This document shows positions 3,111-22,920 of a stretch of 24,162 bases of DNA, one piece after another. The stretch lies in the IMG/VR virus record IMGVR_UViG_2690316224_000007, one strand, 5' to 3'. The notes below the pieces were generated by a model. That model made no database searches. It was not told the DNA's origin and saw only the letters and a list, made by a program, of their open reading frames with translations. How positions within the stretch are numbered: position 1 is the first letter of the stretch; each line of letters opens with the position of its first letter. The stretch is from a virus (Duplodnaviria > Heunggongvirae > Uroviricota > Caudoviricetes). Position numbers and translations under genes: made by a program.

Positions 3111-3417
3111 GGTTGTTGTCCTCGTTGTTCAGTCGTTGCAGTCTGCGCTGTTCCAGTAATTCAATGGCCCGTTTATCCGCGTTACAGGTTTCCAGTGCAT
3201 CCAGAAGGCGGTCGCCCCATATACCGAGATTTCCCCATGTGGGAGTGTCAGGGAAGGGGGGAGGCGTTACCGGTATGGTCAGCGTCTGCGGTATAAGCCG
3301 GACTGACGGCGCTGGCCGTGGCGCGTTCTGCGTGCCTGCGCAACCTGTCAGTAAAACGAGCATCAGGCAAAGCGTGGGCGCATTCATCTTTTGCAATATC
3401 GTTGCGTAGCTGTTCAC
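3097..3417 (-). CDS. lysC: Rz1/LysC-like o-spanin (outer-membrane lipoprotein)
   Basis: Signal peptide plus lipobox LLTGC followed by a proline-rich mature region. Starts inside the i-spanin gene in another frame and runs past its stop into the start of R (overlapped spanin architecture). True start may be the internal ATG near 3387. Confidence 0.7.
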   Translation of the reverse strand: MNSYATILQKMNAPTLCLMLVLLTGCAGTQNAPRPAPSVRLIPQTLTIPVTPPPFPDTPTWGNLGIWGDRLLDALETCNADKRAIELLEQRRLQRLNNEDNNHAEN

Positions 3418-3655
3418 GTCTGGCTTCTCCGTCCTGATTGCGTTGCTGATTTTCCACGCGGAGTTGCGCCAGCACCTGCTGCATATCCTGTACCCCGGTG
3501 CTGATGATATTCAGGGTGTCGACGGTACTTTTCAGGGTGCTGGCCTGCGCTTCGTTTCTGGCGTTCTCCCGGCCCAGCGACCACGACAGACGTATGGATG
3601 TTCCCCATGCGGCAATCAGAAGGAAAGCGACACCCAGCGTGGGCCAGAGCTTCAT
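3248..3655 (-). CDS. lysB: Rz/LysB-like i-spanin
   Basis: Uses the internal ATG at 3655 (MKLWPTLGVAFLLIAAWG: N-terminal transmembrane helix, then a coiled-coil-like Q/R/E-rich region); that ATG forms an ATGA overlap with the endolysin stop. The track ORF extends to 3799 with no supporting signal. Confidence 0.7.
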   Translation of the reverse strand: MKLWPTLGVAFLLIAAWGTSIRLSWSLGRENARNEAQASTLKSTVDTLNIISTGVQDMQQVLAQLRVENQQRNQDGEARREQLRNDIAKDECAHALPDARFTDRLRRHAERATASAVSPAYTADADHTGNASPLP

Positions 3656-4044
3656 GCCGGATAGGCTCCGTGTGGTAACTGAAAATGCGGTCCGTCTTTC
3701 AGGGTCTTCCAGTCGCCGCCCCATTCCACCGGAATATTCAGTTCCCGGCTGGCCTGTCTGAATGCTGCTGCGATTTTTTCGTACAGCGACCATTCCCATG
3801 ACACCTGGCTGCCGATATAAGCCACAACATCCACGGCATGCCCCGTAAGGTGGCGGCTGTTCATGGTCTGGCTCTTACCCGTGGCCACCAGTTGCTTCTG
3901 GCGGTAACGGCTGCGCAACCCTTCGGTGATACCAAAATCCACTTCCGAGATTTCCAGTGCCCGTCGGGTCACTTTCACCAGATCAGGATTTACGCCCTGC
4001 AAATTCTTTTCGCTCCGGCTGCTGAATTTAAATGTGTTGCTCAT
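3652..4044 (-). CDS. Endolysin, peptidase M15 family (L-alanyl-D-glutamate or D-Ala-D-Ala peptidase type)
   Basis: 130-aa ORF with the zinc-ligand pattern SRHLTGHAVDV (H-x6-D) and a C-terminal GPHFQLPHG His, typical of small phage M15 endolysins. Sits in the lysis cassette between holin and spanins; ATGA overlap with the holin stop at 4041-4044. Confidence 0.78.
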   Translation of the reverse strand: MSNTFKFSSRSEKNLQGVNPDLVKVTRRALEISEVDFGITEGLRSRYRQKQLVATGKSQTMNSRHLTGHAVDVVAYIGSQVSWEWSLYEKIAAAFRQASRELNIPVEWGGDWKTLKDGPHFQLPHGAYPA

Positions 4045-9828: not shown

Positions 9829-10874
9829 TGAGCAGAAAAAATAAAAAAGTGCGCATGAGTTCACGCATTGATCTCGCTGATGCGCTCAGGAAAGAATCAT
9901 CGCTCAGTGCATTCACATTTGATGGTCCTTATCGCCTGACCGGGCATGACCTGCTGGACAATATGTACTGTGCTGATAACGGGCGGTGGTATGAAACCCC
10001 GGTGGACTGGTACAGTCTGGCAAGAGCCGCCCGGCAAACGTCCTGGCATCAGTCTGCGCTTTACTTTAAGCGTAATGTATTGCTCGGGTGCTACATCCCG
10101 CACCCGCTGCTTTCCCGGCAGGATTTCTCGGCGCTGGCGCTGGACTGGTTTGTGTTCGGTAACGCATTCCTTGAGCTTCGGAGCAATATGCTCGGCGAAC
10201 CGCTTAAATTACGGCACGCCCTGGCGAAATACATGCGACGCGGAAGCGATCTTGAATCATGGTGGTATGTGCAGGATGGCAAGGACGCGTTCCAGTTTCG
10301 CCCTGGCAAAGTGTGCCACCTGATGAATCCGGATATTAACCAGGAAATCTACGGCATGCCGGAATATCTTGGCGCATTACTCTCGGCCAGCCTTTCTCAT
10401 TCGGCGGACATGTTCAGAAAACTGTACTACGACAACGGATCCCACGCCGGGTGCATCATCTACATCGGTGCAGCGCAGGTAAACCGCGAAAGCATGGACT
10501 CCCTGAAAGAAACGTTACAGGGTGCGCGTGGTGGTGGTGCATTTAAAAACGTGCTCATTCATGCGCCCAACGGGGGCAAAGAAGGGGTGCAAATTTTGCC
10601 GTTCCAGCAGATCACCGCAAAGGATGAGTTCATGAATGTTAAGGCGGCATCCCGTGATGATGTGCTGGCTGCGCACCGCGTTCCGCCGCAACTGATGGGG
10701 GCGATGCCGGGCGAAAAAAGTGCGTTTGGTGATGTGGAGAAGGCCGCGCGGGTTTACGCAATTAACGAGCTGATGCCCGTCATGGAGGCCATGAAGCACA
10801 TCAATGACTGGCTTGGCGAAGAGGTGATCCGCTTTAACCCTTACGCACTGTTAGACACCCAGCCCACATCCTGA
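9828..10874 (+). CDS. Q: Portal protein gpQ
   Basis: 348-aa ORF translationally coupled to P; size and position as P2 Q; ends facing the expected cos region. Confidence 0.9.
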   Translation: MSRKNKKVRMSSRIDLADALRKESSLSAFTFDGPYRLTGHDLLDNMYCADNGRWYETPVDWYSLARAARQTSWHQSALYFKRNVLLGCYIPHPLLSRQDFSALALDWFVFGNAFLELRSNMLGEPLKLRHALAKYMRRGSDLESWWYVQDGKDAFQFRPGKVCHLMNPDINQEIYGMPEYLGALLSASLSHSADMFRKLYYDNGSHAGCIIYIGAAQVNRESMDSLKETLQGARGGGAFKNVLIHAPNGGKEGVQILPFQQITAKDEFMNVKAASRDDVLAAHRVPPQLMGAMPGEKSAFGDVEKAARVYAINELMPVMEAMKHINDWLGEEVIRFNPYALLDTQPTS

Positions 10875-11994: not shown

Positions 11995-12306
11995 TTACTC
12001 AGGAAATAACGCCCGGATATTCCCAGCCATCTGGCTGGTTATCTTAGCCACTGGTGCAGACTGTGCTTCAAACTTTTTTGAGCTGATTTGTGTCACAGGT
12101 AATATCTCATCATCAGCCCATGCGGCCAGTCGGTAAGCCTCTGCCGGATTCGTCTTCAGAAGTGCCAGCCCGGCCAGAAAAGCCACGCGTTGGCCGCTTT
12201 TGCGGGCTTCTGGTGTAAGGCTGTCCAGCCAGGCGCATGCTTCTCCTTCGTTCTTGACGGCAGCTGGCTTCAGATAGAAACTTATTCTTCTGGTTGGTGT
12301 CGTCAT
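11995..12306 (-). CDS. parR: ParR/StbB-like centromere-binding protein (ribbon-helix-helix type)
   Basis: 103-aa ORF 4 nt downstream of parM, with an AAGGAG SD in the parM 3' end. Blocks RRISFYLKP, ACAWLDSL..E, RVAFLAGLAL and NIRALFPE align with plasmid R1 ParR as recalled. Confidence 0.65.
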   Translation of the reverse strand: MTTPTRRISFYLKPAAVKNEGEACAWLDSLTPEARKSGQRVAFLAGLALLKTNPAEAYRLAAWADDEILPVTQISSKKFEAQSAPVAKITSQMAGNIRALFPE

Positions 12307-12310
12307 TGGT

Positions 12311-13270
12311 TTACTCCTTGTTCATTGCGTACAGCCCATTAACCAGAGCAAATTGTGGCACCCCGTCCGCGATGAAAGTCGCATTAACTCCGCAGGCTTC
12401 GCGGATAGCGGGTGCCACAATCTCCGCCCCGCCACCGACAACCATCACCCGCCCGTAACCCGAAAAAACCGCCAGAGCGCGGATCACGCGTTGTTTCAGT
12501 GTTTCTTCCTTTTCACGAATAATCGCCATCAGGCTGGCGTAATGCGCGTCATTGTGGATGTGCTGGCGCAACCAGGCTTCATCATGGCGATGTTCGATAA
12601 TGGTATTGGCGATGTGGTGACTGGTGCGCATACCGTTAGTGGCCATCACCGACAGTACGGCATCGGCCATCAGAGAAACGCCTACGTGTGGATCGCAAAA
12701 CACCTGGCTGATACCTGCCAGTTGCCCCTGAACCTTTGCCACATCCAGCGTGGTTCCGCCCAAATCCACAATCAGCAGGGATTCAAACGGACTCATGTCA
12801 GCCAGTGCCTTAAAGCCAGCCGGAATGGATTCAGGCATAACCCGCACGTTACGGATAGTGAATGCTTCGCCGTTCTGGTACTCCACCGGGCGCATAACGT
12901 TCGCTTTTTTGCGGTTGATGTTGGCCATGTCCGGCTGTGCGTTTGTGTCGAAATACTCGCTCAGTGGCAGGGTGACAACCACATCCACCTCCCGTGGCGT
13001 GATGCCTGATTTGACCAGCGCGTGATGAATGGCAATGACATTCACATCGCTGTACTGGTATTGCGTGTCGGTCGTCTGGACAAAGCGATCGCTGACCGGA
13101 TCAAAACCATAGCGCACGCCATCAAGCATGTAGTTCGCGGGCTGCGTGCCACCGAACGGCGCAGACCATTCCGACTTGAAGCTGTTCGGGCTGATGGCGT
13201 TGCGGCGTTCGCCGTTCTCAGTCCATGCCAGCTTGATGTTGGTGGAGCCGTCGTCGATACAAATTCTCAT
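12311..13270 (-). CDS. parM: ParM/StbA actin-like segregation ATPase
   Basis: 319-aa ORF with a near-complete set of ParM blocks matching R1 ParM as recalled: IDDGSTNIKL, SPNSFK, YSDVNV, HHAL, TLPL, RKKAN, FTIRNVRVMPESIPAG, SLLIVDLGGTTLD, GVSL, LKQRV, FSGYGRVMVVGGGAE, LVNGLY. AGGAAAA SD before the ATG. Confidence 0.9.
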   Translation of the reverse strand: MRICIDDGSTNIKLAWTENGERRNAISPNSFKSEWSAPFGGTQPANYMLDGVRYGFDPVSDRFVQTTDTQYQYSDVNVIAIHHALVKSGITPREVDVVVTLPLSEYFDTNAQPDMANINRKKANVMRPVEYQNGEAFTIRNVRVMPESIPAGFKALADMSPFESLLIVDLGGTTLDVAKVQGQLAGISQVFCDPHVGVSLMADAVLSVMATNGMRTSHHIANTIIEHRHDEAWLRQHIHNDAHYASLMAIIREKEETLKQRVIRALAVFSGYGRVMVVGGGAEIVAPAIREACGVNATFIADGVPQFALVNGLYAMNKE

Positions 13271-13415: not shown

Positions 13416-16169
13416 TCCACTGGTCAGGCTACCCCGCAGCAGGTCTGCTTTGCGGCGGGCGCGTTCAGTGGTTTCACTGATTCTCTGTGCGTGCTCTGCG
13501 TCACGAATGGCGCGCAGCATGTCAGAAAGCACGGTAACGGGGGTTTTCATGGTGTTCTGGTCCTGCTGAAGTGTGGATGCCAGGCGTGCGGCGGCTTCGG
13601 GGTCTGATGTCCCCAGCTGTTCCAGATAGCTGGCGACCGGGTTATGGCGGATCTCCGTACTGCTTACGCCGTGGTTACGGCTCAGGCGCTGCCAGAGCTG
13701 CGTGATCCGGCTGTCCGGTCGGGTATCCGGTTTGCGTACAATTTCAAATCCCTGCGGTGCAATGTTGCTGCCGTCAACGTACAGACTGCCGCCCCGTAAC
13801 AGGTGCTGCATCTGCTGTTCACCGATATGCAGGCCGAGAGATTCAGCAGACTCCCGCCATTCTTTAGCGAGTAGTTCGTGGTTATCAGGCAAAGGCCGCT
13901 GCTGTTTGCGGCTCTGTGTCCAGCTCTGCATTTCATCACGGCTGTTTTTTGCCTGTTTGTCACGAAGCGAACGCATCAGCGCCCGGCGTTCGTGCCGTTT
14001 CAGTGAGCGCATCCATTCGTTCACTTCAACGCCGTCAGGGAGCTGCGGCCACGGTGCTGGCCGTTCTTCCGGCTGTTCTGTCCCGTTGTTGTCCGTTTCC
14101 TGTACACGGGGACAGTTATTGCCACGAGTCCAAGGGGCGGCAGGGCCGCCCTGAAGGTCAAAACCATTTTCGCGGGCGCTGTCTTCCGCTTCCGGTTTGC
14201 GTCTTACCAGCTTCCAGTTATCCGGATGCGTGCATACGCGGGAAGACTCCCCAATGAGCGGCGACCAGATCCCGTAAATCTGTACACTCTGCTCGCCGTA
14301 ATCGTTCAGCTCATCTGCGAGGTCGTAGGCTGTGCGAATCAGGTAGTCCTTGCGCGGAACAAGTACGCCCCCCTGTTTTTCAATGTAGGTGGCAAAACAT
14401 CCGGCATCAGCGGCAGCGAGTACCGCATCCATTGCGTCATCCTTCAGCCGTTGCGGGCCTTCCGGGTTGCGTGCCATCTGGCTGGCAAGGCGGCGGAGTT
14501 CACGCCACACCTGACGGGAGGGGATGCCAAAGAACTGGAACTGGCGGACCCGGTGAAGGCGCGCCCAGCCGATGGCACGCTCCACGCTCTCGGCCATTGA
14601 TTTACCTGTTTCGTGGTCAACGCGTGGCTTGCCCGTTTTCGGGTCGATGCCATCCACGGCACGGCTGTCCAGGTTTTTCCCGATGTAGGTGGCGATGTAG
14701 CTGGTCGGTGTGCCTTTTGAGCCGTCGACGTACTCCGCTTTAAAACGCGGAGTTATGTCATCGCCCAGCTCGTGACGATCTTCCTGAATGGCAATATCGC
14801 GGGTGTGGGACACAATGGTGTCGATTTCTTCCGGATGAGCAAAGACCATCATATGCCAGTGCACGGTGCCGTCATGGTGAGGCTCCACCGTGCGGATGCC
14901 ATACCAGCGCAGGCCGTCGCGGTTCAGTTTCTTGCGGACCGCCGCAAAAAACGAGTTAACCAGGTAATCGCTGGAGTCGCGCATAGTGGCCCCGTTCCAT
15001 TTGGGATTCGGATGACCGTTCTCCGTTGTTGCGTGGTATTTTGACGGGCAGGTGACAGTCAGAAACACCGCTCTGTCGCCACGGGCTTCGGCCAGAAGTT
15101 CCAGCCCCTTCATGGTGGCCATCATTTCTGCCTTACGGTGAACCGGGTTACTTACTCCCGCGTAATACACCGTCTCGAGATCAATCGTGAACCCGTCTTC
15201 ATTTTCCAGCATGAAACTTTTCAGGAAATCGCGTGTTTTCTCGCGCTGTGCGCGAAACTCGCTTAACGCATCCTGGCTCAGATAGGGCGATGTTTTTCTG
15301 GAAACCAGACAGGCGGCGCGGAGTTGTTCTTCTCTCCACTCGCAACGTAACAGCCACAGTTTGCGTTTCCACCATTCCGCACAGGTCAGGCGAAGGACTG
15401 CGCCCGGCAGCAGCTCCGTGTCCGGTTCGTTCCTCCGGTCTTTATCTGTTGTCAGTGCGTCATAATGTGGAGGCATGATGTGCAGGTGTAACGCCATGCG
15501 GGCCAGCATCTGATACGTCTTCAGCGTTACATCCATGGTCAGTTCGCCATCGGTCGCGCCAAAGCCATCGCAGAGTTTTTCGAAGGTGCTGCTGAACATC
15601 GCCGCCGTCATGGTGGCCAGCGTCTGTATCTGGTGTTTGTTGAGCTGCGGCAGGTAAAGCAAATCGTCCAGGCGTTCGCGTCCGGCAAGGGAGCGATAAC
15701 CCGGTGTCAGCCAGCGTCCGTCAGTGCGATCCAGACGTTCGAATATTTTGCGCAGGGTTCCGCGTGCATAGCGTTCCGCCTGCCAGCTCTTTTTGCCTTT
15801 CCGGCGATCGACTTCCTGTTTTTTGCGCAGGAAGGAGAGGTGGCGAATAAGCGGATCGCGCAGATAGGACGGCAGCAGGCGCAGCGAGGCCATGGCTTCA
15901 TCCACCGTGCCGCGTGCCTGTCTTCTGGCGTCTCCTGCCAGCGTGATGGTTTTGTCCTGTTTTTCCTGTGCGTCCAGGCTTTTATTAATCAGGTTGCCCA
16001 GTGGCGTGGCAGAGAACGCCGCATCAGCCTTTTCCTGTCGGTGCTCGTTCTCTGCCTGGTAGGCATCCAGCCAGGAGGAAAGCGCAGATTCAGGTGCGGG
16101 GATCCCCGTTCCTTCACGCCCCACTGCGTGGCGCGGTTGTTGCCAGTCCCTGATGTACTCTGTCGTCAT
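13347..16169 (-). CDS. A: Replication initiation endonuclease gpA (rolling-circle HUH initiator), 940 aa
   Basis: HUH motif seen as VEPHHDGTVHWHMMVF and the two-tyrosine catalytic motif as TSYIATYIGKN (Y-x3-Y). Position downstream of the small early genes matches P2 A; about 180 aa longer than P2 A at the C-terminus. Confidence 0.88.
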   Translation of the reverse strand: MTTEYIRDWQQPRHAVGREGTGIPAPESALSSWLDAYQAENEHRQEKADAAFSATPLGNLINKSLDAQEKQDKTITLAGDARRQARGTVDEAMASLRLLPSYLRDPLIRHLSFLRKKQEVDRRKGKKSWQAERYARGTLRKIFERLDRTDGRWLTPGYRSLAGRERLDDLLYLPQLNKHQIQTLATMTAAMFSSTFEKLCDGFGATDGELTMDVTLKTYQMLARMALHLHIMPPHYDALTTDKDRRNEPDTELLPGAVLRLTCAEWWKRKLWLLRCEWREEQLRAACLVSRKTSPYLSQDALSEFRAQREKTRDFLKSFMLENEDGFTIDLETVYYAGVSNPVHRKAEMMATMKGLELLAEARGDRAVFLTVTCPSKYHATTENGHPNPKWNGATMRDSSDYLVNSFFAAVRKKLNRDGLRWYGIRTVEPHHDGTVHWHMMVFAHPEEIDTIVSHTRDIAIQEDRHELGDDITPRFKAEYVDGSKGTPTSYIATYIGKNLDSRAVDGIDPKTGKPRVDHETGKSMAESVERAIGWARLHRVRQFQFFGIPSRQVWRELRRLASQMARNPEGPQRLKDDAMDAVLAAADAGCFATYIEKQGGVLVPRKDYLIRTAYDLADELNDYGEQSVQIYGIWSPLIGESSRVCTHPDNWKLVRRKPEAEDSARENGFDLQGGPAAPWTRGNNCPRVQETDNNGTEQPEERPAPWPQLPDGVEVNEWMRSLKRHERRALMRSLRDKQAKNSRDEMQSWTQSRKQQRPLPDNHELLAKEWRESAESLGLHIGEQQMQHLLRGGSLYVDGSNIAPQGFEIVRKPDTRPDSRITQLWQRLSRNHGVSSTEIRHNPVASYLEQLGTSDPEAAARLASTLQQDQNTMKTPVTVLSDMLRAIRDAEHAQRISETTERARRKADLLRGSLTSGNKKQTETGFTNPVNEQKTRRDI

Positions 16170-16175
16170 ACTGAT

Positions 16176-16541
16176 TTACTGCGTCATACCGTTCAGGGTG
16201 TCACGGCAAACGGCAGCCAGCCGCTGAATTTCCAGCACGGTGTCTTCTGTGTCGGCATAGCGATGTGTGATGCGGATGCTGTCGGCAATCACATCGACGA
16301 TTGCAGAGGATGGGCGCTGGTAAATGCCAATAACGGACGGAGTGCCACCTTCAATGCGGTAAAGCCTGTAATTTCCCTCGTGGCTGTCAATCATGTAGCG
16401 ACCATCAATAACAATCTTTCCGTCAGCGAGCTGCGGTACAGGCAGGGATTTCAGGTACATGTCATAACGTTCACGCACGCGAACGGCAAGATCACGCTCT
16501 GTGTTGAGCAGGTATTCAAGAAAGTCGTTGGCGAGAATCAT
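16176..16541 (-). CDS. Hypothetical early protein (121 aa) immediately upstream of A
   Basis: AAGAGGA SD 8 nt upstream of the ATG; stop lies 6 nt before the A start. Present in all three repeat copies with a few amino-acid differences. No recognisable family. Confidence 0.6.
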   Translation of the reverse strand: MILANDFLEYLLNTERDLAVRVRERYDMYLKSLPVPQLADGKIVIDGRYMIDSHEGNYRLYRIEGGTPSVIGIYQRPSSAIVDVIADSIRITHRYADTEDTVLEIQRLAAVCRDTLNGMTQ

Positions 16542-16613
16542 TGCGGCAATCCTCTTGTTACAGATGTGCGAAGGCCTCCCGCCGCAAGGTGCAGGAAAGG
16601 CCCGGAACAGGAA

Positions 16614-16844
16614 TTAATGGAGTTTGTTTTGCTGCTGGATGAGCTGCTGAAGCTCGCGCAGATCATCCGCCAGATAACTGAAAACAGCGGATGAGTAGAG
16701 GTTTGAAAGTTCGCAGCTACGCTCATGCAGCATATTGATGTGCATGATTTTAGCGACGCGGAATGCGCGGGAAAGTCTGCGGTTGATTTCAGTCTGGATG
16801 TGACGACGCTCCGCGATAGCGCGGTGCTGTTTGCGGTTTGCCAT
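16614..16844 (-). CDS. Hypothetical small basic protein (76 aa)
   Basis: AGAGG SD 7 nt upstream of the ATG; basic helical N-terminus (NRKQHRAIAERRHIQTEINRRL); identical in all three copies. Confidence 0.5.
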   Translation of the reverse strand: MANRKQHRAIAERRHIQTEINRRLSRAFRVAKIMHINMLHERSCELSNLYSSAVFSYLADDLRELQQLIQQQNKLH

Positions 16845-17211
16845 GGTGTGGCCTCTTTGGTTGTAAGTTTTGAAAACTCACCATCCAGAGCTGCGAAACT
16901 GTGGGTGGCGAGACGTACGGGGTTCGCAGTACCGGCAACCAAAGAACCCGGCCCGACCGAAGTCGGCCCCGTACGCCCCGCCATAATTCTGACGCGAAAA
17001 AAACGTGGCAATACAGTACGCACAAAAAAACCGCTGGCGCGGTTGTGCGCTTTGGTTGTCAGCAGGCTGCGAAACCCGGCACCCGTTTTATGAGGTGCAG
17101 CGAAAATGTAACCTGACTGATTGCGGCATGGCAAGCGGTTTTTTTGTGAGAACGGCATACTAAAAAATCCTGATACTGCTCCGGCCAGCGGTTTGCACTG
17201 GCCGGGTGTCA
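16845..17211 (-). ncRNA. Structured non-coding spacer between the SPFH gene and the 76-aa gene (candidate terminator cluster or small RNA)
   Basis: Minus-strand reading shows, in order, an 8-bp-stem hairpin CCGGCCAG..CTGGCCGG just after the SPFH stop, a hairpin AACCGC-GCCA-GCGGTT followed by TTTTTTT, a second T7 run, and a CCGAC-UUCG-GUCGG tetraloop hairpin. The only long ORF across it is low-complexity and out of frame with the 76-aa gene. Identical copies at 20135..20501 and 21523..21889. Confidence 0.4.
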
Positions 17212-17636
17212 TTACTTCACGGGAACGAACGGAACAGCGGTGTTACTGGTCATGTATTGCGGCAGCGTGCCGTTCCATTTGTTGATCGCTTCCAGCTCCA
17301 TAACGCCGGGATTCTGGCGCAGAGCTTCGCCGCGTAAACGAATGGCGTCGGCTTCAGCCTGGGCTTTTGTGCGAATGGCATCGGCCTGTCCGGCAGCTTC
17401 TGCGCGCAACATGTTGGCTTCTGCTTCGCGCTGCTTGACTTCCTGTTCGCGTTGCAGGGTTTTCTGGTTTGCCGTGACTTTGGCATTAATGCTGTCGATA
17501 ACGGTTGGCGGGTATTCCGGCTTACCCACATAAGAGAGGCTCATTACCTGAATGCCGATAGGTGTCGTTTCTGCCTGAATGTCTTTAAGTGCTGAATCCA
17601 GCAGTTCAGACTTGCCACCGTCGATAAATTTATCGN
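17212..17636 (-). pseudogene. 3' fragment of the SPFH lipoprotein gene (copy 1), truncated at an N
   Basis: Colinear with 21890..22314 of the full-length gene; coding continuity ends exactly at the ambiguous base at 17637. Confidence 0.65.
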
Positions 17637-17637
17637 G
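17637..17637. other. Single N: probable contig join
   Basis: SPFH-gene sequence lies directly before the N and mid-gene A sequence directly after it, which cannot be one contiguous locus. Confidence 0.8.
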
Positions 17638-19459
17638 TGCGAATCAGGTAGTCTTTGCGTGGAACAAGTACGCCGCCCTGTTTCTCTATGTAGGTGGCAA
17701 AACATCCGGCATCAGCGGCAGCGAGTACCGCATCCATTGCGTCATCCTTCAGCCGTTGCGGGCCTTCCGGGTTGCGTGCCATCTGGCTGGCAAGGCGGCG
17801 GAGTTCACGCCACACCTGACGGGAGGGGATACCAAAGAACTGGAACTGGCGGACACGGTGAAGGCGCGCCCAGCCGATGGCGCGTTCCACGCTCTCGGCC
17901 ATTGATTTTCCGGTTTCGTGGTCAACGCGTGGCTTGCCCGTTTTCGGGTCGATGCCATCTACGGCGCGGCTGTCCAGGTTCTTTCCGATGTAGGTGGCGA
18001 TGTAGCTGGTTGGCGTGCCTTTTGAGCCGTCGACGTACTCCGCCTTAAAGCGTGGGGTAATATCATCACCCAGCTCGTGACGATCTTCCTGAATGGCAAT
18101 ATCGCGGGTGTGGGACACAATGGTGTCGATTTCTTCCGGATGAGCAAAGACCATCATATGCCAGTGCACGGTGCCGTCATGGTGAGGCTCCACCGTGCGG
18201 ATGCCATACCAGCGCAGGCCGTCGCGGTTCAGTTTCTTGCGGACCGCCGCAAAAAACGTGTTAACCAGGTAATCGCTGGAGTCGCGCATGGTGGCCCCGT
18301 TCCATTTGGGATTCGGATGACCGTTCTCTGTTGTGGCGTGGTATTTTGACGGGCAGGTGATGGTCAGAAACACCGCTTTGTCGCCACGGGCTTCGGCCAG
18401 AAGTTCCAGCCCCTTCATGGTGGCCATCATTTCTGCCTTACGGTGAACCGGGTTACTTACTCCCGCGTAATACACTGTCTCGAGATCAATCGTGAACCCG
18501 TCTTCGTTTTCCAGAATGAAACTTTTCAGGAAATCGCGTGTTTTCTCGCGCTGTGCGCGAAACTCGCTTAACGCGTCCTGGCTCAGATAGGGCGATGTTT
18601 TTCTGGAAACCAGACAGGCGGCGCGGAGTTGTTCTTCCCGCCACTCGCAACGTAACAGCCACAGTTTGCGTTTCCACCATTCCGCACAGGTCAGGCGAAG
18701 GATTGCGCCCGGTAACAGTTCCGTATCCGGATCGCTCTTGTTCAGAGCTTCGTAATGTGGCGGCATGGCGTGCAGGTGTAACGCCATGCGGGCCAGCATC
18801 TGATACGCCTTCAGCGTTACATCCATGGTCAGTTCGCCATCGGTCGCGCCAAAGCCATCGCAGAGTTTTTCGAAGGTGCTGCTGAACATCGCCGCCGTCA
18901 TGGTGGCCAGCGTCTGTATCTGGTACTGGTTGAGCTGCGGCAGGTAAAGCAAATCATCCAGGCGTTCGCGTCCGGCAAGGGAGCGATAACCCGGTGTCAG
19001 CCAGCGGTGGTCGGTGCGGTCCAGACGTTCGAATATTTTGCGCAGTGTTCCGCGCGCGTAGCGTTCAGCCTGCCAGCTCTTTTTGCCTTTCCGGCGATCG
19101 GCTTCCTGTTTTTTGCGCAGGAAGGAGAGGTGGCGAATAAGCGGATCGCGCAGATAGGACGGCAGCAGGCGCAGCGAGGCCATGGCTTCATCCACCGCGC
19201 CGCGTGCCTGTTTTCTGGCGTCTCCTGCCAGTGTGATGGTTTTGTCCTGTTTTTCCTGTGCGTCCAGGCTTTTATTAATCAGGTTGCCCAGCGGCGTGGC
19301 GGAGAACGCCGCATCAGCCATTTCCTGGCGGCGCTCGTTCTCTGCCCGGTAGGCATCCAGCCAGGAGGAAAGCGCGGATTCAGGAACGGGGATCCCCGTT
19401 CCTTCACGCCCCACTGCGTGGCGCGGTTGTTGCCAGTCCCTGATGTACTCTGCCGTCAT
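17638..19459 (-). pseudogene. A: gpA copy 2: N-terminal ~607 codons, truncated at the N
   Basis: Colinear with 14340..16169 but with many substitutions and an indel (HYDALTTDKDRRNEPDTELL versus HYEALNKSDPDTELL), i.e. a divergent allele rather than an exact duplicate. Confidence 0.7.
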
Positions 19460-19465
19460 AGTGAT

Positions 19466-19831
19466 TTACTTCGTCATGCCATTCAGGGTGTCGCGGCAGA
19501 CGGCAGCCAGCCGCTGAATTTCCAGCACGGTGTCTTCTGTGTCGGCATGGCGATGTGTGATGCGGATGCTGTCGGCAATCACATCGACGATTGCAGAGGA
19601 TGGGCGCTGGTAAATGCCAATAACGGACGGGGTGCCATCTTCAATGCGGTAAAGCCTGTAATTTCCCTCGTGGCTGTCAATCATGTAGCGACCATCAATA
19701 ACAATCTTTCCGTCAGCGAGCTGCGGTACAGGCAGGGATTTCAGGTACATGTCATAACGTTCACGCACGCGAACGGCAAGATCACGCTCTGTGTTGAGCA
19801 GGTATTCAAGAAAGTCGTTGGCGAGAATCAT
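19466..19831 (-). CDS. 121-aa early protein, copy 2
   Basis: Differs from copy 1 at three residues (G to D, Y to H, terminal Q to K). Confidence 0.55.
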   Translation of the reverse strand: MILANDFLEYLLNTERDLAVRVRERYDMYLKSLPVPQLADGKIVIDGRYMIDSHEGNYRLYRIEDGTPSVIGIYQRPSSAIVDVIADSIRITHRHADTEDTVLEIQRLAAVCRDTLNGMTK

Positions 19832-19903
19832 TGCGGCAATCCTCTTGTTACAGATGTGCGAAGGCCTCCCGCCGCAAGGTGCAGGAAAGGCCCGGAACAG
19901 GAA

Positions 19904-20134
19904 TTAATGGAGTTTGTTTTGCTGCTGGATGAGCTGCTGAAGCTCGCGCAGATCATCCGCCAGATAACTGAAAACAGCGGATGAGTAGAGGTTTGAAAGT
20001 TCGCAGCTACGCTCATGCAGCATATTGATGTGCATGATTTTAGCGACGCGGAATGCGCGGGAAAGTCTGCGGTTGATTTCAGTCTGGATGTGACGACGCT
20101 CCGCGATAGCGCGGTGCTGTTTGCGGTTTGCCAT
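19904..20134 (-). CDS. 76-aa basic protein, copy 2
   Basis: Identical to copy 1. Confidence 0.45.
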   Translation of the reverse strand: MANRKQHRAIAERRHIQTEINRRLSRAFRVAKIMHINMLHERSCELSNLYSSAVFSYLADDLRELQQLIQQQNKLH

Positions 20135-20501
20135 GGTGTGGCCTCTTTGGTTGTAAGTTTTGAAAACTCACCATCCAGAGCTGCGAAACTGTGGGTGGCG
20201 AGACGTACGGGGTTCGCAGTACCGGCAACCAAAGAACCCGGCCCGACCGAAGTCGGCCCCGTACGCCCCGCCATAATTCTGACGCGAAAAAAACGTGGCA
20301 ATACAGTACGCACAAAAAAACCGCTGGCGCGGTTGTGCGCTTTGGTTGTCAGCAGGCTGCGAAACCCGGCACCCGTTTTATGAGGTGCAGCGAAAATGTA
20401 ACCTGACTGATTGCGGCATGGCAAGCGGTTTTTTTGTGAGAACGGCATACTAAAAAATCCTGATACTGCTCCGGCCAGCGGTTTGCACTGGCCGGGTGTC
20501 A

Positions 20502-20768
20502 TTACTTCACGGGAACGAACGGAACAGCGGTGTTACTGGTCATGTATTGCGGCAGCGTGCCGTTCCATTTGTTGATCGCTTCCAGCTCCATAACGCCGGG
20601 ATTCTGGCGCAGAGCTTCGCCGCGTAAACGAATGGCGTCGGCTTCAGCCTGGGCTTTTGTGCGAATGGCATCGGCCTGTCCGGCAGCTTCTGCGCGCAAC
20701 ATGTTGGCTTCTGCTTCGCGCTGCTTGACTTCCTGTTCGCGTTGCAGGGTTTTCTGGTTTGCCGTGAC
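20502..20768 (-). pseudogene. 3' fragment of the SPFH lipoprotein gene (copy 2), truncated at the N run
   Basis: Colinear with 21890..22156; ends at NNNNNN. Confidence 0.65.
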
Positions 20769-20774
20769 NNNNNN
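20769..20774. other. NNNNNN: probable scaffold gap or contig join
   Basis: Flanked by SPFH-internal sequence on the left and the A 5' end on the right. Confidence 0.8.
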
Positions 20775-20847
20775 CGGGGATCCCCGTTCCTTCACGCCCC
20801 ACTGCGTGGCGCGGTTGTTGCCAGTCCCTGATGTACTCTGCCGTCAT
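20775..20847 (-). pseudogene. A: gpA copy 3: first 24 codons only
   Basis: MTAEYIRDWQQPRHAVGREGTGIP then the N run. Confidence 0.65.
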
Positions 20848-20853
20848 AGTGAT

Positions 20854-21219
20854 TTACTTCGTCATGCCATTCAGGGTGTCGCGGCAGACGGCAGCCAGCC
20901 GCTGAATTTCCAGCACGGTGTCTTCTGTGTCGGCATGGCGATGTGTGATGCGGATGCTGTCGGCAATCACATCGACGATTGCAGAGGATGGGCGCTGGTA
21001 AATGCCAATAACGGACGGAGTGCCACCTTCAATGCGGTAAAGCCTGTAATTTCCCTCGTGGCTGTCAATCATGTAGCGACCATCAATAACAATCTTTCCG
21101 TCAGCGAGCTGCGGTACAGGCAGGGATTTCTGGTACATGTCATAACGATCACGCACGCGAGCGGCAAGATCACGTTCTGTGTTGAGCAGGTATTCAAGAA
21201 AGTCGTTGGCGAGAATCAT
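20854..21219 (-). CDS. 121-aa early protein, copy 3
   Basis: A third allele (substitutions in the RVRDRYDMYQKSL segment relative to copies 1 and 2). Confidence 0.55.
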   Translation of the reverse strand: MILANDFLEYLLNTERDLAARVRDRYDMYQKSLPVPQLADGKIVIDGRYMIDSHEGNYRLYRIEGGTPSVIGIYQRPSSAIVDVIADSIRITHRHADTEDTVLEIQRLAAVCRDTLNGMTK

Positions 21220-21291
21220 TGCGGCAATCCTCTTGTTACAGATGTGCGAAGGCCTCCCGCCGCAAGGTGCAGGAAAGGCCCGGAACAGGAA

Positions 21292-21522
21292 TTAATGGAG
21301 TTTGTTTTGCTGCTGGATGAGCTGCTGAAGCTCGCGCAGATCATCCGCCAGATAACTGAAAACAGCGGATGAGTAGAGGTTTGAAAGTTCGCAGCTACGC
21401 TCATGCAGCATATTGATGTGCATGATTTTAGCGACGCGGAATGCGCGGGAAAGTCTGCGGTTGATTTCAGTCTGGATGTGACGACGCTCCGCGATAGCGC
21501 GGTGCTGTTTGCGGTTTGCCAT
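21292..21522 (-). CDS. 76-aa basic protein, copy 3
   Basis: Identical to copies 1 and 2. Confidence 0.45.
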   Translation of the reverse strand: MANRKQHRAIAERRHIQTEINRRLSRAFRVAKIMHINMLHERSCELSNLYSSAVFSYLADDLRELQQLIQQQNKLH

Positions 21523-21889
21523 GGTGTGGCCTCTTTGGTTGTAAGTTTTGAAAACTCACCATCCAGAGCTGCGAAACTGTGGGTGGCGAGACGTACGGGG
21601 TTCGCAGTACCGGCAACCAAAGAACCCGGCCCGACCGAAGTCGGCCCCGTACGCCCCGCCATAATTCTGACGCGAAAAAAACGTGGCAATACAGTACGCA
21701 CAAAAAAACCGCTGGCGCGGTTGTGCGCTTTGGTTGTCAGCAGGCTGCGAAACCCGGCACCCGTTTTATGAGGTGCAGCGAAAATGTAACCTGACTGATT
21801 GCGGCATGGCAAGCGGTTTTTTTGTGAGAACGGCATACTAAAAAATCCTGATACTGCTCCGGCCAGCGGTTTGCACTGGCCGGGTGTCA

Positions 21890-22720
21890 TTACTTCACGG
21901 GAACGAACGGAACAGCGGTGTTACTGGTCATGTATTGCGGCAGCGTGCCGTTCCATTTGTTGATCGCTTCCAGCTCCATAACGCCGGGATTCTGGCGCAG
22001 AGCTTCGCCGCGTAAACGAATGGCGTCGGCTTCAGCCTGGGCTTTTGTGCGAATGGCATCGGCCTGTCCGGCAGCTTCTGCGCGCAACATGTTGGCTTCT
22101 GCTTCGCGCTGCTTGACTTCCTGTTCGCGTTGCAGGGTTTTCTGGTTTGCCGTGACTTTGGCATTAATGCTGTCGATAACGGTTGGCGGGTATTCCGGCT
22201 TACCCACATAAGAGAGGCTCATTACCTGAATGCCGATAGGTGTCGTTTCTGCCTGAATGTCTTTAAGTGCTGAATCCAGCAGTTCAGACTTGCCACCGTC
22301 GATAAATTTATCGGTGGTCATTTTGCTGGCCAGTCGGTTGAGTGCGTCGGCGATCTTCTGGCGCAGGTCAGTGTCGGTAATGTCATCCACGCCTTTGCGG
22401 TAGGTCTGAAACACTGTAGTAACTTTGGATGGATCAACCTTGTAGGCCACACCGATGTGATAGCCGATGGTTGTGCCGTCACTCATCTGAAAGCTGAACG
22501 GCTCATCGTAGGTCTTCATTTGTTTGAAGGTCGGGAAGATGTAAACCTCGGTATTCCAGCCAGTCCAGTAGCGACCAACGCCAACCACTTCGCCAACGCC
22601 TTTGTCGTCGCCCAGCTTGTTGACTTTGATGCCCACATTACCTGGCTCAACGCGATCGCAGCCAACCAGCAGGATGGCGGCAAAAAGCGGGAGAATCTGA
22701 AAGAGTCTGAATTTCTTCAT
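21890..22720 (-). CDS. SPFH/Band-7 (stomatin/prohibitin/HflK-C-like) lipoprotein, predicted periplasmic-face inner-membrane anchored
   Basis: 276-aa ORF with signal peptide and lipobox LLVGC followed by Asp at +2 (C-D-R-V). SPFH-like core and a C-terminal Ala/Glu/Gln/Arg-rich coiled-coil (REQEVKQREAEANMLRAEAAGQADAIRTKAQAEADAIRLRGEAL). ATGA overlap with the upstream membrane-protein gene. Confidence 0.8.
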   Translation of the reverse strand: MKKFRLFQILPLFAAILLVGCDRVEPGNVGIKVNKLGDDKGVGEVVGVGRYWTGWNTEVYIFPTFKQMKTYDEPFSFQMSDGTTIGYHIGVAYKVDPSKVTTVFQTYRKGVDDITDTDLRQKIADALNRLASKMTTDKFIDGGKSELLDSALKDIQAETTPIGIQVMSLSYVGKPEYPPTVIDSINAKVTANQKTLQREQEVKQREAEANMLRAEAAGQADAIRTKAQAEADAIRLRGEALRQNPGVMELEAINKWNGTLPQYMTSNTAVPFVPVK

Positions 22721-22920
22721 TGTTTAATTTCCTTGATGTACTTACTGAAAAGGCGAACAACGCCTGCCGGGTACAACATGGCAATGAAAATGCCCAGCAA
22801 TACCAGGAAGGAGCTGTCTGATGAAATCATTCGGGGGAGTACCCCTACATACAGAATGAGAGAGACGAGGACGCATACCAGCGCCCATGCATATGCACGA
22901 AACCATGTCTTGTTGTTCAT
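22717..22920 (-). CDS. Small two-helix membrane protein (67 aa), translationally coupled to the SPFH gene
   Basis: ATG at 22920 with an AAGGG SD; product MNNKTWFRAYAWALVCVLVSLILYVGVLPRMISSDSSFLVLLGIFIAMLYPAGVVRLFSKYIKEIKQ has two hydrophobic helices. The longer track ORF from 23052 overlaps the upstream gene out of frame. Confidence 0.5.
   Translation of the reverse strand: MNNKTWFRAYAWALVCVLVSLILYVGVLPRMISSDSSFLVLLGIFIAMLYPAGVVRLFSKYIKEIKQ

Follow-up and report, generated by a model that had tools for sequence, protein, structure and literature searches.

A coupled gene pair for an SPFH lipoprotein and a predicted two-helix membrane partner, shared by phages and bacterial chromosomes, as a candidate inner-membrane assembly

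Why a phage should carry a gene for a lipoprotein of the SPFH/Band-7 superfamily is the question raised by positions 21890 to 22920 of a 24,162-nucleotide (nt) stretch of tailed phage DNA (IMG/VR record IMGVR_UViG_2690316224_000007, the whole of which is referred to here as the window), where such a gene (21890..22720) lies on the minus strand together with a gene for a 67-amino-acid (aa) membrane protein (22717..22920). SPFH open reading frames (ORFs) have been noted in phage genomes since at least 2006, according to a phage paper of 2026 it "remains unclear" why a phage genome should have an SPFH lipoprotein, and the role of most bacterial SPFH proteins is itself an open question; in the full-text literature no functional study of the SPFH phage family or of N4 gp19/gp20 was found. 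The answer argued for here is that the two genes would code for the two parts of one assembly at the inner membrane's periplasmic side, which would be made early in infection and may enclose a host protein.

The 276-aa product of the larger gene matches the Pfam Band_7 profile (PF01145) with E=2.9e-30 and 106.1 bits against a cut-off of 23.6 bits, residues 23-209, the SPFH domain (22094..22654, minus strand), being aligned to positions 2-176 of the 176 in the profile; it also matches PHROG 200, annotated "lipoprotein", over residues 3-275 (E=5.3e-111). The AlphaFold2 (AF2) model, made from a 117-sequence family alignment and with a predicted local distance difference test score (pLDDT) of 91.9, has in order a signal helix, an alpha/beta core at residues 21-176, an unbroken 65-residue helix (179-243), a second, short one (245-255) and a tail. 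When this model was compared with the PDB by Foldseek, full-length matches at E ~1e-13 were obtained to HflC, HflK, prohibitin 1 and 2, erlin 1 and 2 and stomatin, with weaker ones to QmcA (from the QmcA-YbbJ complex), flotillin and the major vault protein, and all the structural relatives listed are cage formers. The family profile searched against PDB sequences has prohibitin 1 as its top match (E=8.8e-10, profile positions 6-243), with HflK, HflC and QmcA at ~1e-6. By a profile match above a curated threshold and by its fold the protein is therefore a member of the SPFH/Band-7 superfamily, as had been proposed from the sequence, with an architecture like that of prohibitin and HflK/C. The long helix is rich in Ala, Glu and Gln and with the short helix is encoded at 21956..22186 (minus strand); as modelled, they are respectively the CC1 "wall" and the CC2 "cap" of SPFH cages. 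Conserved columns of the alignment in this helix and tail region are A191, Q193, A207, A216, A231, W256, G258 and P261, the last three falling within a conserved C-terminal motif, K-W-x-G-x-x-P, at residues 255-261 in the less confident tail of the model.

The N-terminus of the SPFH protein reads MKKFRLFQILPLFAAILLVGC-DR, where MKKFRLFQILPLFAAILLVGC has a basic N-region and a hydrophobic core and ends in LVGC, fitting the pattern [LVI][ASTVI][GAS]C of a predicted lipoprotein signal. Residues 1-20, which form the signal peptide, and the lipobox Cys21 are encoded at 22658..22720, and Asp22 and Arg23, which follow the Cys directly at positions +2 and +3, at 22652-22657, both on the minus strand; the lipobox with Asp at +2 that the original prediction described is thus present as written. 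The Cys is conserved in at least 90% of the 117 aligned sequences, Asp is found at +2 in 102 of the 108 close relatives that have a lipobox, and throughout the family the Cys stands 2-3 residues ahead of the conserved first SPFH strand, "RVEPGxVGIKV".

The smaller gene codes for a protein with two hydrophobic stretches and with basic residues at both ends, which matches PHROG 1130, annotated "membrane protein", over residues 6-67 (E=1.6e-20). Its AF2 model (pLDDT 89.5) consists of two helices, 3-32 and 37-66, with a four-residue turn between them; the alignment used was that of the window protein with the natural fusions described below, in which the partner's C-terminal residues are in part wrongly placed against the SPFH region. 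On hydropathy and charge the partner is predicted to lie in the inner membrane with both N- and C-terminus inside and a short turn in the periplasm. Among 23 aligned partners and fusion N-termini a motif P29-x-(L/M)-(I/V)-S33 is found at the end of helix 1, with P29 and S33 invariant. The partner had been said to recall NfeD, a common companion of SPFH proteins, without being one, and this is borne out: at E<=0.05-0.1 neither the window protein nor any of the 23 aligned sequences has a Pfam hit, NfeD included, and the partner profile has no relative in the PDB, on which grounds an identity as NfeD or as a protein of the T4 Imm type is ruled out.

The two genes are joined by an ATGA overlap at 22717..22720, the ATG start of the SPFH gene being 22720-22718 and the TGA stop of the partner gene 22719-22717, an arrangement of translational coupling that was correctly read from the outset. 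A Shine-Dalgarno sequence, AAGGA, lies at 22731-22735, 10 nt upstream of the SPFH start and within the partner gene. Overlaps of 4-8 nt between partner and SPFH gene are likewise found in phages Fraca, Ostro, LG08, Jura of the N4 genus and Paxi and in metagenomic phages.

How constant this pairing is was assessed at several depths. In 79 of 80 IMG/VR loci found by tblastn the partner lies directly upstream of the SPFH gene, the 80th locus being cut by the end of its contig. By reading the upstream DNA the partner was found in phiP27, Pastis, Fraca, the phage-plasmid Cyrano, Ostro, Paxi, Maja, LG08, Jura and Lak-B6, amongst which are a Pseudomonas phage (Ostro), a Stenotrophomonas phage (Paxi), a Burkholderia phage (Maja), a Rhizobium phage (LG08) and a Prevotella megaphage (Lak-B6). 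An intact, motif-bearing partner ORF goes unannotated in phiP27 and in Erwinia phage Pastis, and the gene is likewise unannotated in the RefSeq record of the Escherichia coli genome ETEC1749; the partner regions concerned are 22717-22920 of the window and 9832-10041, 3307-3669 and 3280-3470 of the loci that we number L173, L002 and L084. Systematic under-annotation of the partner gene has probably hidden the pairing.

An exhaustive search for the SPFH family amongst 1.84 billion cluster representatives gave 2804 clusters at E<=0.001, of which 218 reach E<=1e-30. The best 150 representatives are mostly lipoproteins of ~280 aa; in 37 of them the lipobox pattern is unmatched, and many of these have an uncleaved N-terminal hydrophobic anchor. 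Some 18 of the 150 are natural fusions, in which a P-x-L-I-S hairpin is followed by a basic linker, a third hydrophobic segment ending in a conserved Cys, and the SPFH domain. Such fusions are Rosetta-stone evidence that the partner and the SPFH protein act together, and they also fix the topology, with both ends of the hairpin in the cytoplasm and the SPFH domain in the periplasm. Together with the anchored relatives, the position of the Cys 2-3 residues before the first strand and the Asp at +2, they argue for a periplasmic location on the inner membrane, and the SPFH protein of the window is predicted to be lipidated and retained on the periplasmic leaflet of that membrane. The location given in the original prediction is thus supported, independently of the Asp rule, by the anchored and fused homologues and the spacing of Cys and strand; taken by itself the Asp at +2 is not a decisive signal.

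The two halves of the module differ in how far they are conserved. In 25 loci on larger contigs of lambdoid type the SPFH protein is 92-93% identical to that of the window and the partner only 46-48% (tblastn), with its position unchanged. The nucleotide similarity to lambdoid phages (Stx, phiP27), of ~92%, spans only the mature part of the SPFH gene (21923-22663) and ends close to the lipobox; in these phages the partner gene, like the signal peptide, is of a different and far more divergent type, such that the membrane-embedded parts would appear either to evolve faster or to be exchanged as a separate unit. In Buttiauxella gaviniae (L094) and Candidatus Symbiopectobacterium (L095) the partner ORF has an in-frame stop and the SPFH gene looks intact; these stop codons could reflect decay or sequencing error.

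When the pair is made is suggested by its surroundings. It ends a chain of six translationally coupled minus-strand genes of a P88-like (P2-family) prophage, running from 24010 to 21890 and joined by 4-nt overlaps and one 10-nt gap, so that four ORFs lie upstream of the pair, and a consensus scan found no sigma-70-like promoter site upstream of it. Phage P88 and the complete genome ETEC1749 share the gene order, and on this synteny the pair lies between cox and the gene for replication endonuclease A; the original reading that it sits amongst early replication genes is thus confirmed for this phage type. In two metagenomic phage contigs it is found amongst genes for a primase-helicase, DNA polymerase A and dCTP deaminase. 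The cox-headed operon of P2-type phages is repressed in the lysogen. As there is no room for a promoter of its own, and by analogy with P2, the pair should be an early product of lytic growth and not a product of the lysogen, and in the prophage its expression would be confined to the early phase.

Two of the explanations that might be offered for the locus are affected directly by this position. The first is that the pair is a module for abortive infection or some other anti-phage defence that is expressed from the prophage; in its favour, the two genes make up a cassette acting at the membrane, and defence cargo is known from P2-like phages. A scan of PADLOC-DB v2 gave no usable match, however, the SPFH protein being without any and the partner having only a 20-residue match to PDC-M18B (E=0.008); furthermore the pair lies inside a repressed early operon without a promoter-like site, most of the sampled carriers are virulent phages, and no literature tying SPFH proteins to phage defence was found. 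We regard a defence role as highly improbable. The second is that the SPFH protein is a lipoprotein of lysogenic conversion or virulence like PM0222 of Pasteurella multocida, an SPFH protein encoded by a prophage for which a virulence phenotype has been reported, and it is true that the closest genome match of the window is a porcine enterotoxigenic E. coli (ETEC) strain. Against this, the gene occupies an early lytic operon and not a position from which it would be expressed autonomously, its wide occurrence in virulent environmental phages lacks any host-animal logic, and the parallel comes from one paper, on a Pasteurella prophage protein; there is very little chance that this explanation is the right one.

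The distribution of the family bears on what remains. Of 50,697 phage records searched by tblastn, 411 have an SPFH homologue, and the pair is thus less unusual than the original prediction implied, belonging as it does to a catalogued phage gene family. The eight of the 411 for which taxonomy was looked up fall in Schitoviridae (Pastis, Paxi and Jura), Bruynoghevirus (PaP4), Ounavirinae (phiEa104), Vequintavirinae (NINP13076), Dolichocephalovirinae (Magneto) and Bcepfunavirus (Maja), most of which are regarded as strictly virulent. Amongst complete E. coli genomes 576 of 5,426 (~10%) have a match at the nucleotide level, with 227 matching places on plasmids, that is to say phage-plasmids. With one genome taken per GTDB species, and with the search for loci seeded with a 12-sequence alignment (the 117-sequence alignment being too diverse), the family is found in Enterobacterales, Xenorhabdus, Morganella, Sutterella, many Dyella, Leptospira, Saprospirales, Bacteroidales, Dependentiae and others. 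The partner is recognisable at no fewer than 56 of the 79 GTDB loci that could be assessed, a figure tallied by hand as the union of two motif scans with different thresholds, which gave 52 and 53 positives and to which manual inspection added more, including the two pseudogenised partners. Some of the chromosomal loci with the pair are syntenic between species, both in Dyella (L103, L107, L117, L122, L123 and L125) and in Leptospira (L146-L148). In the Dyella locus Penicillinase_R/Peptidase_M56 (blaI/blaR1-like) genes lie beside the pair in divergent orientation, with hemerythrin and nrdA/nrdB nearby; in the Leptospira locus sdhCAB and glycosyltransferase genes adjoin and a conserved gene of 154-155 aa without a Pfam match lies directly downstream. 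The module is both cellular and phage-borne.

It was originally suggested that the pair might tune the FtsH-dependent turnover of a CII-like regulator and so bias the decision between lysis and lysogeny. The compartment and the class of fold are shared with HflK/C, which enclose FtsH, and early production would coincide with the time of the decision. Nevertheless families regarded as strictly virulent, Lak megaphages and housekeeping loci of Dyella and Leptospira carry the pair, from which it follows that neither a role in lysogeny nor one in abortive infection, as had also been suggested, is its general function; nor was a CII-like gene identified in the early operon. That lysogeny control is the conserved function is very unlikely.

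The same distribution tells both for and against superinfection exclusion, in which an early cage and hairpin would block the entry of DNA from later phages by covering or sequestering the components of entry at the inner membrane, an effect like that of T4 Imm and Sp and of HK97 gp15, which act by other means. Virulent phages need exclusion as well, and with this a broad distribution is in agreement, as are early expression and the predicted periplasmic face of the inner membrane; in the Vi01-like phage PhiSH19 the SPFH ORF adjoins a gene annotated "superinfection exclusion protein", and in the GIB1 paper the authors' guess is that the protein takes part in adsorption or DNA entry. The occurrence of the pair at Dyella and Leptospira housekeeping loci with conserved synteny argues, on the other hand, for a core function in the cell, neither protein matches the Pfam superinfection-immunity family or, the short match mentioned above apart, any PADLOC model, and a single mechanism would be faced with very different routes of entry in hosts from Prevotella to Caulobacter. 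We consider exclusion unlikely. Much the same standing is given to a factor for envelope stress or membrane integrity, which would stabilise or reseal the inner membrane after genome injection, during a long replicative period, on premature holin action or on lysis from without, and for which no specific protein client would be needed. SPFH proteins are general membrane-organising scaffolds, the position of the Dyella pair divergent from a sensor-repressor pair of the blaI/blaR1 type suggests stress-responsive control, and virulent phages of many families carry the pair, those of the N4 genus amongst them. A periplasmic cage on a small patch of membrane is however no obvious sealant, and where SPFH cages of this orientation have been characterised it is proteases that they act on, rather than the integrity of the membrane; we consider this account improbable too.

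The explanation that we favour is that one translationally coupled cassette gives rise to a two-component assembly of the inner membrane. The partner would insert as a hairpin of two helices whose ends both lie in the cytoplasm, only the four-residue turn and the P-x-L-I-S motif being exposed to the periplasm, whilst the SPFH protein would be exported, lipidated on Cys21 and kept on the periplasmic leaflet. With only two residues between the lipid and the first strand the SPFH domain would be expected to lie flush on the bilayer, and by means of its 65-residue wall helix the protein would probably oligomerise, like prohibitin and HflK/C, to give a ring or cage that covers a patch of membrane. 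A lipid anchor reaches one leaflet only, and therefore the partner, at 1:1, would probably supply the membrane-spanning fence that in HflK/C is provided by their own N-terminal helices. The cassette would be made on infection or induction and not in the lysogen, and its general function would be one of membrane physiology borrowed during lytic growth, in which a client in the inner membrane is sequestered or regulated. The likeliest client would be the host protease FtsH, as the only SPFH cages so far characterised that face the periplasm or the mitochondrial intermembrane space (HflK/C with FtsH and prohibitin with m-AAA) enclose AAA proteases of the FtsH family and are also the closest profile relatives. 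The architectural claims for this assembly we hold to be quite probable; FtsH as the client is possible by analogy, if doubtful; and the explanation as a whole, of a coupled cage and partner made early with FtsH as its likely client, is put forward as a tentative one.

A number of points weigh against it. The promoter scan was a crude consensus search, so that silence of the pair in the lysogen is no more than probable; its place in the early operon is particular to the P88-like type of phage, and in lambdoid phages the pair sits near int/xis, a typical accessory position. No partner precedes the SPFH gene in phiEa104, NINP13076, PaP4 and one E. coli/Shigella type, a single-helix protein standing in its place in PaP4, and as the partner is missing in some lineages the SPFH protein can work without it. 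The rule for avoidance of the Lol system asks not only for Asp at +2 but also for particular residues at +3, and the Arg found here is not amongst those known to strengthen retention by Asp, such that on the signal alone an outer-membrane location in E. coli would also be compatible. The cage is an oligomer proposed from a model of the monomer. Finally, there is a single SPFH gene and not a pair of paralogues, and the link between the pair and FtsH is one of analogy, the equivalog scores given below being far under their cut-offs.

Downstream of the pair, the hairpins that had been predicted are present. A 10-base-pair (bp) GC-rich hairpin (21859..21883, minus strand, by RNA folding) begins 7 nt past the SPFH stop and has a run of six U 13 nt further on; in Jura and Paxi, too, the SPFH gene is followed at this point by an annotated terminator, and the hairpin marks the end of the cassette. 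It is followed on the same strand by isrK (RF01394, 65.9 bits, 21702-21776) and the C4 antisense RNA (RF01695, 87.1 bits, 21579-21666), which with a 76-aa "derepression protein" (PF25738) make up a block at 21292-21776 that is repeated at ~16614-17098 and 19904-20388 (Rfam and Pfam). Promoter-like sites lie immediately upstream of isrK and of C4, and there is a terminator-like hairpin within isrK. The block looks like a P1/P4-style RNA-controlled antirepressor module placed in a P2-like early operon, upstream of gene A. A gene for the plasmid-segregation protein ParM and one for a partition protein are found beside the replication endonuclease (11995-13270, minus strand; also 784-2059 of locus L001); these are unusual for an integrated P2-type phage, which may have an episomal stage.

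The repeats are best understood from the nature of the window, which is a scaffold with a single N at 17636 and six at 20769-20774. Positions 14332-17478 are 96.8% identical to 17637-20768, and 16097-17639 are 99.2% identical to 20775-22316, so that the window has three copies of the block of a 121-aa gene, derepression protein, C4 and isrK, as well as the 3' end of the SPFH gene in two further, truncated copies (17212-17635 and 20502-20768). A true tandem duplication is ruled out, as the copies abut the runs of N and the region is in single copy in the complete genome ETEC1749, and the truncated SPFH copies are assembly duplicates; the identity of 96.8% suggests that two related prophage alleles have been collapsed into one scaffold. 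ETEC1749, from a porcine E. coli and the closest genome match, has a pair 99.9% identical to that of the window, and its order is portal, ParM, endonuclease A, the 121-aa gene, derepression protein, SPFH, an unannotated gap at the position of the partner, a 99-aa gene, a MarR-like gene, and more genes up to Cox, followed by the C repressor, integrase and pheL/pheA.

What this amounts to is that an isolated annotation becomes a defined two-component module, with a partner motif, fusions and a topology, which is present in tractable phages (P88 and the N4 genus), in ~10% of complete E. coli genomes and on Dyella and Leptospira chromosomes. As far as it was searched, the literature describes neither the conserved hairpin partner and its motif, nor the fusions that occur naturally, nor the presence of the module in both cells and phages. 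Since a phage retains a gene only if it pays, the P88 and N4 pairs are suited to probing the function of a periplasm-facing SPFH cage, and were it true that the pair controls FtsH this would be a new phage strategy for managing host proteolysis. One may speculate further that the partner represents an unrecognised class of SPFH partner, different from NfeD, which with a lipid-anchored protein of prohibitin type would build a periplasmic nanocage, and that phages of many families, P2-like and lambdoid phages, phage-plasmids, N4 and Lak megaphages amongst them, deploy it early on to enclose or silence a universal machine of the inner membrane such as FtsH; such a nanocage would be, just as speculatively, a phage-borne counterpart of HflK/C that some bacteria have kept as a chromosomal stress gene pair.

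Amongst known systems the nearest are other members of the same family. The genes for gp11 and gp12 of phage P88 (Xuanwuvirus, Peduoviridae; PHROG 1130 and 200) are the same genes in the same order and the same early-operon place, 95.6% identical in nucleotide sequence and 98.9% in the SPFH protein, and the window pair is an allele of them without any difference of substance; they have been labelled no further than "membrane protein" and "lipoprotein", although some annotators already write "HflC/HflK family inner membrane lipoprotein" beside "putative membrane protein". The possibility, raised at the outset, that the pair is a core P2-family gene of known function is ruled out, as amongst Peduoviridae only P88 matches at the nucleotide level and its genes are unnamed and uncharacterised; the pair is an accessory phage gene family that is already catalogued (P88 gp11/gp12, PHROG 200/1130, N4 gp19/gp20). 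Equivalent pairs are found in other Schitoviridae, and in Enquatrovirus Jura, which carries the labels N4 gp19/gp20, a 68-aa hairpin protein (P-x-M-M-S) overlaps by 8 nt with a 278-aa SPFH lipoprotein that starts "CYDRVEPGNVGI" and is 61.5% identical to that of the window. The N4-type pair differs in belonging to a virulent phage and in its genomic setting, since in Jura (L183, 502-1537) it is a two-gene unit between annotated terminators and behaves as a self-contained cassette.

The SPFH-NfeD operons (E. coli QmcA-YbbJ, PDB 8z5g, and Pyrococcus PH1511/PH1510) also have the gene for a small membrane protein upstream of, and coupled to, an SPFH gene, and the NfeD-type protein is probably at or inside the SPFH ring, as is supposed here for the partner. 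NfeD proteins have however a C-terminal OB-fold, and in the long forms a ClpP-like protease, whereas the 67-aa partner has neither; membership of this class is ruled out by the two-helix partner, the lack of an OB-fold and the lack of an NfeD match in Pfam at E<=0.1. QmcA faces the cytoplasm, and the SPFH protein of the window is predicted to face the periplasm. PM0222, a prophage-encoded HflK/C-like SPFH protein, is the only one found with an experimental phenotype, its reported role being to trigger TLR1/2 signalling in host inflammation once released in outer-membrane vesicles. The host proteins HflK and HflC are two paralogues with N-terminal transmembrane helices of their own and no small partner, and are only ~16-18% identical to the SPFH protein of the window. 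Membership of HflK/HflC is ruled out, as the NCBIfam equivalog cut-offs are missed (23.2 against 134.4 bits for TIGR01932, hflC, and 21.8 against 159.4 for TIGR01933, hflK), there is a single SPFH gene and the anchor is predicted to be a lipid; what is shared with them is the SPFH fold, the long wall helix and the orientation from the inner membrane towards the periplasm. Prohibitin (PHB1/PHB2) is a eukaryotic heteromer with a transmembrane-helix anchor and without a hairpin partner, yet it is the best match by sequence profile, is of nearly the same length (272 against 276 aa), and has the equivalent orientation, facing the intermembrane space.

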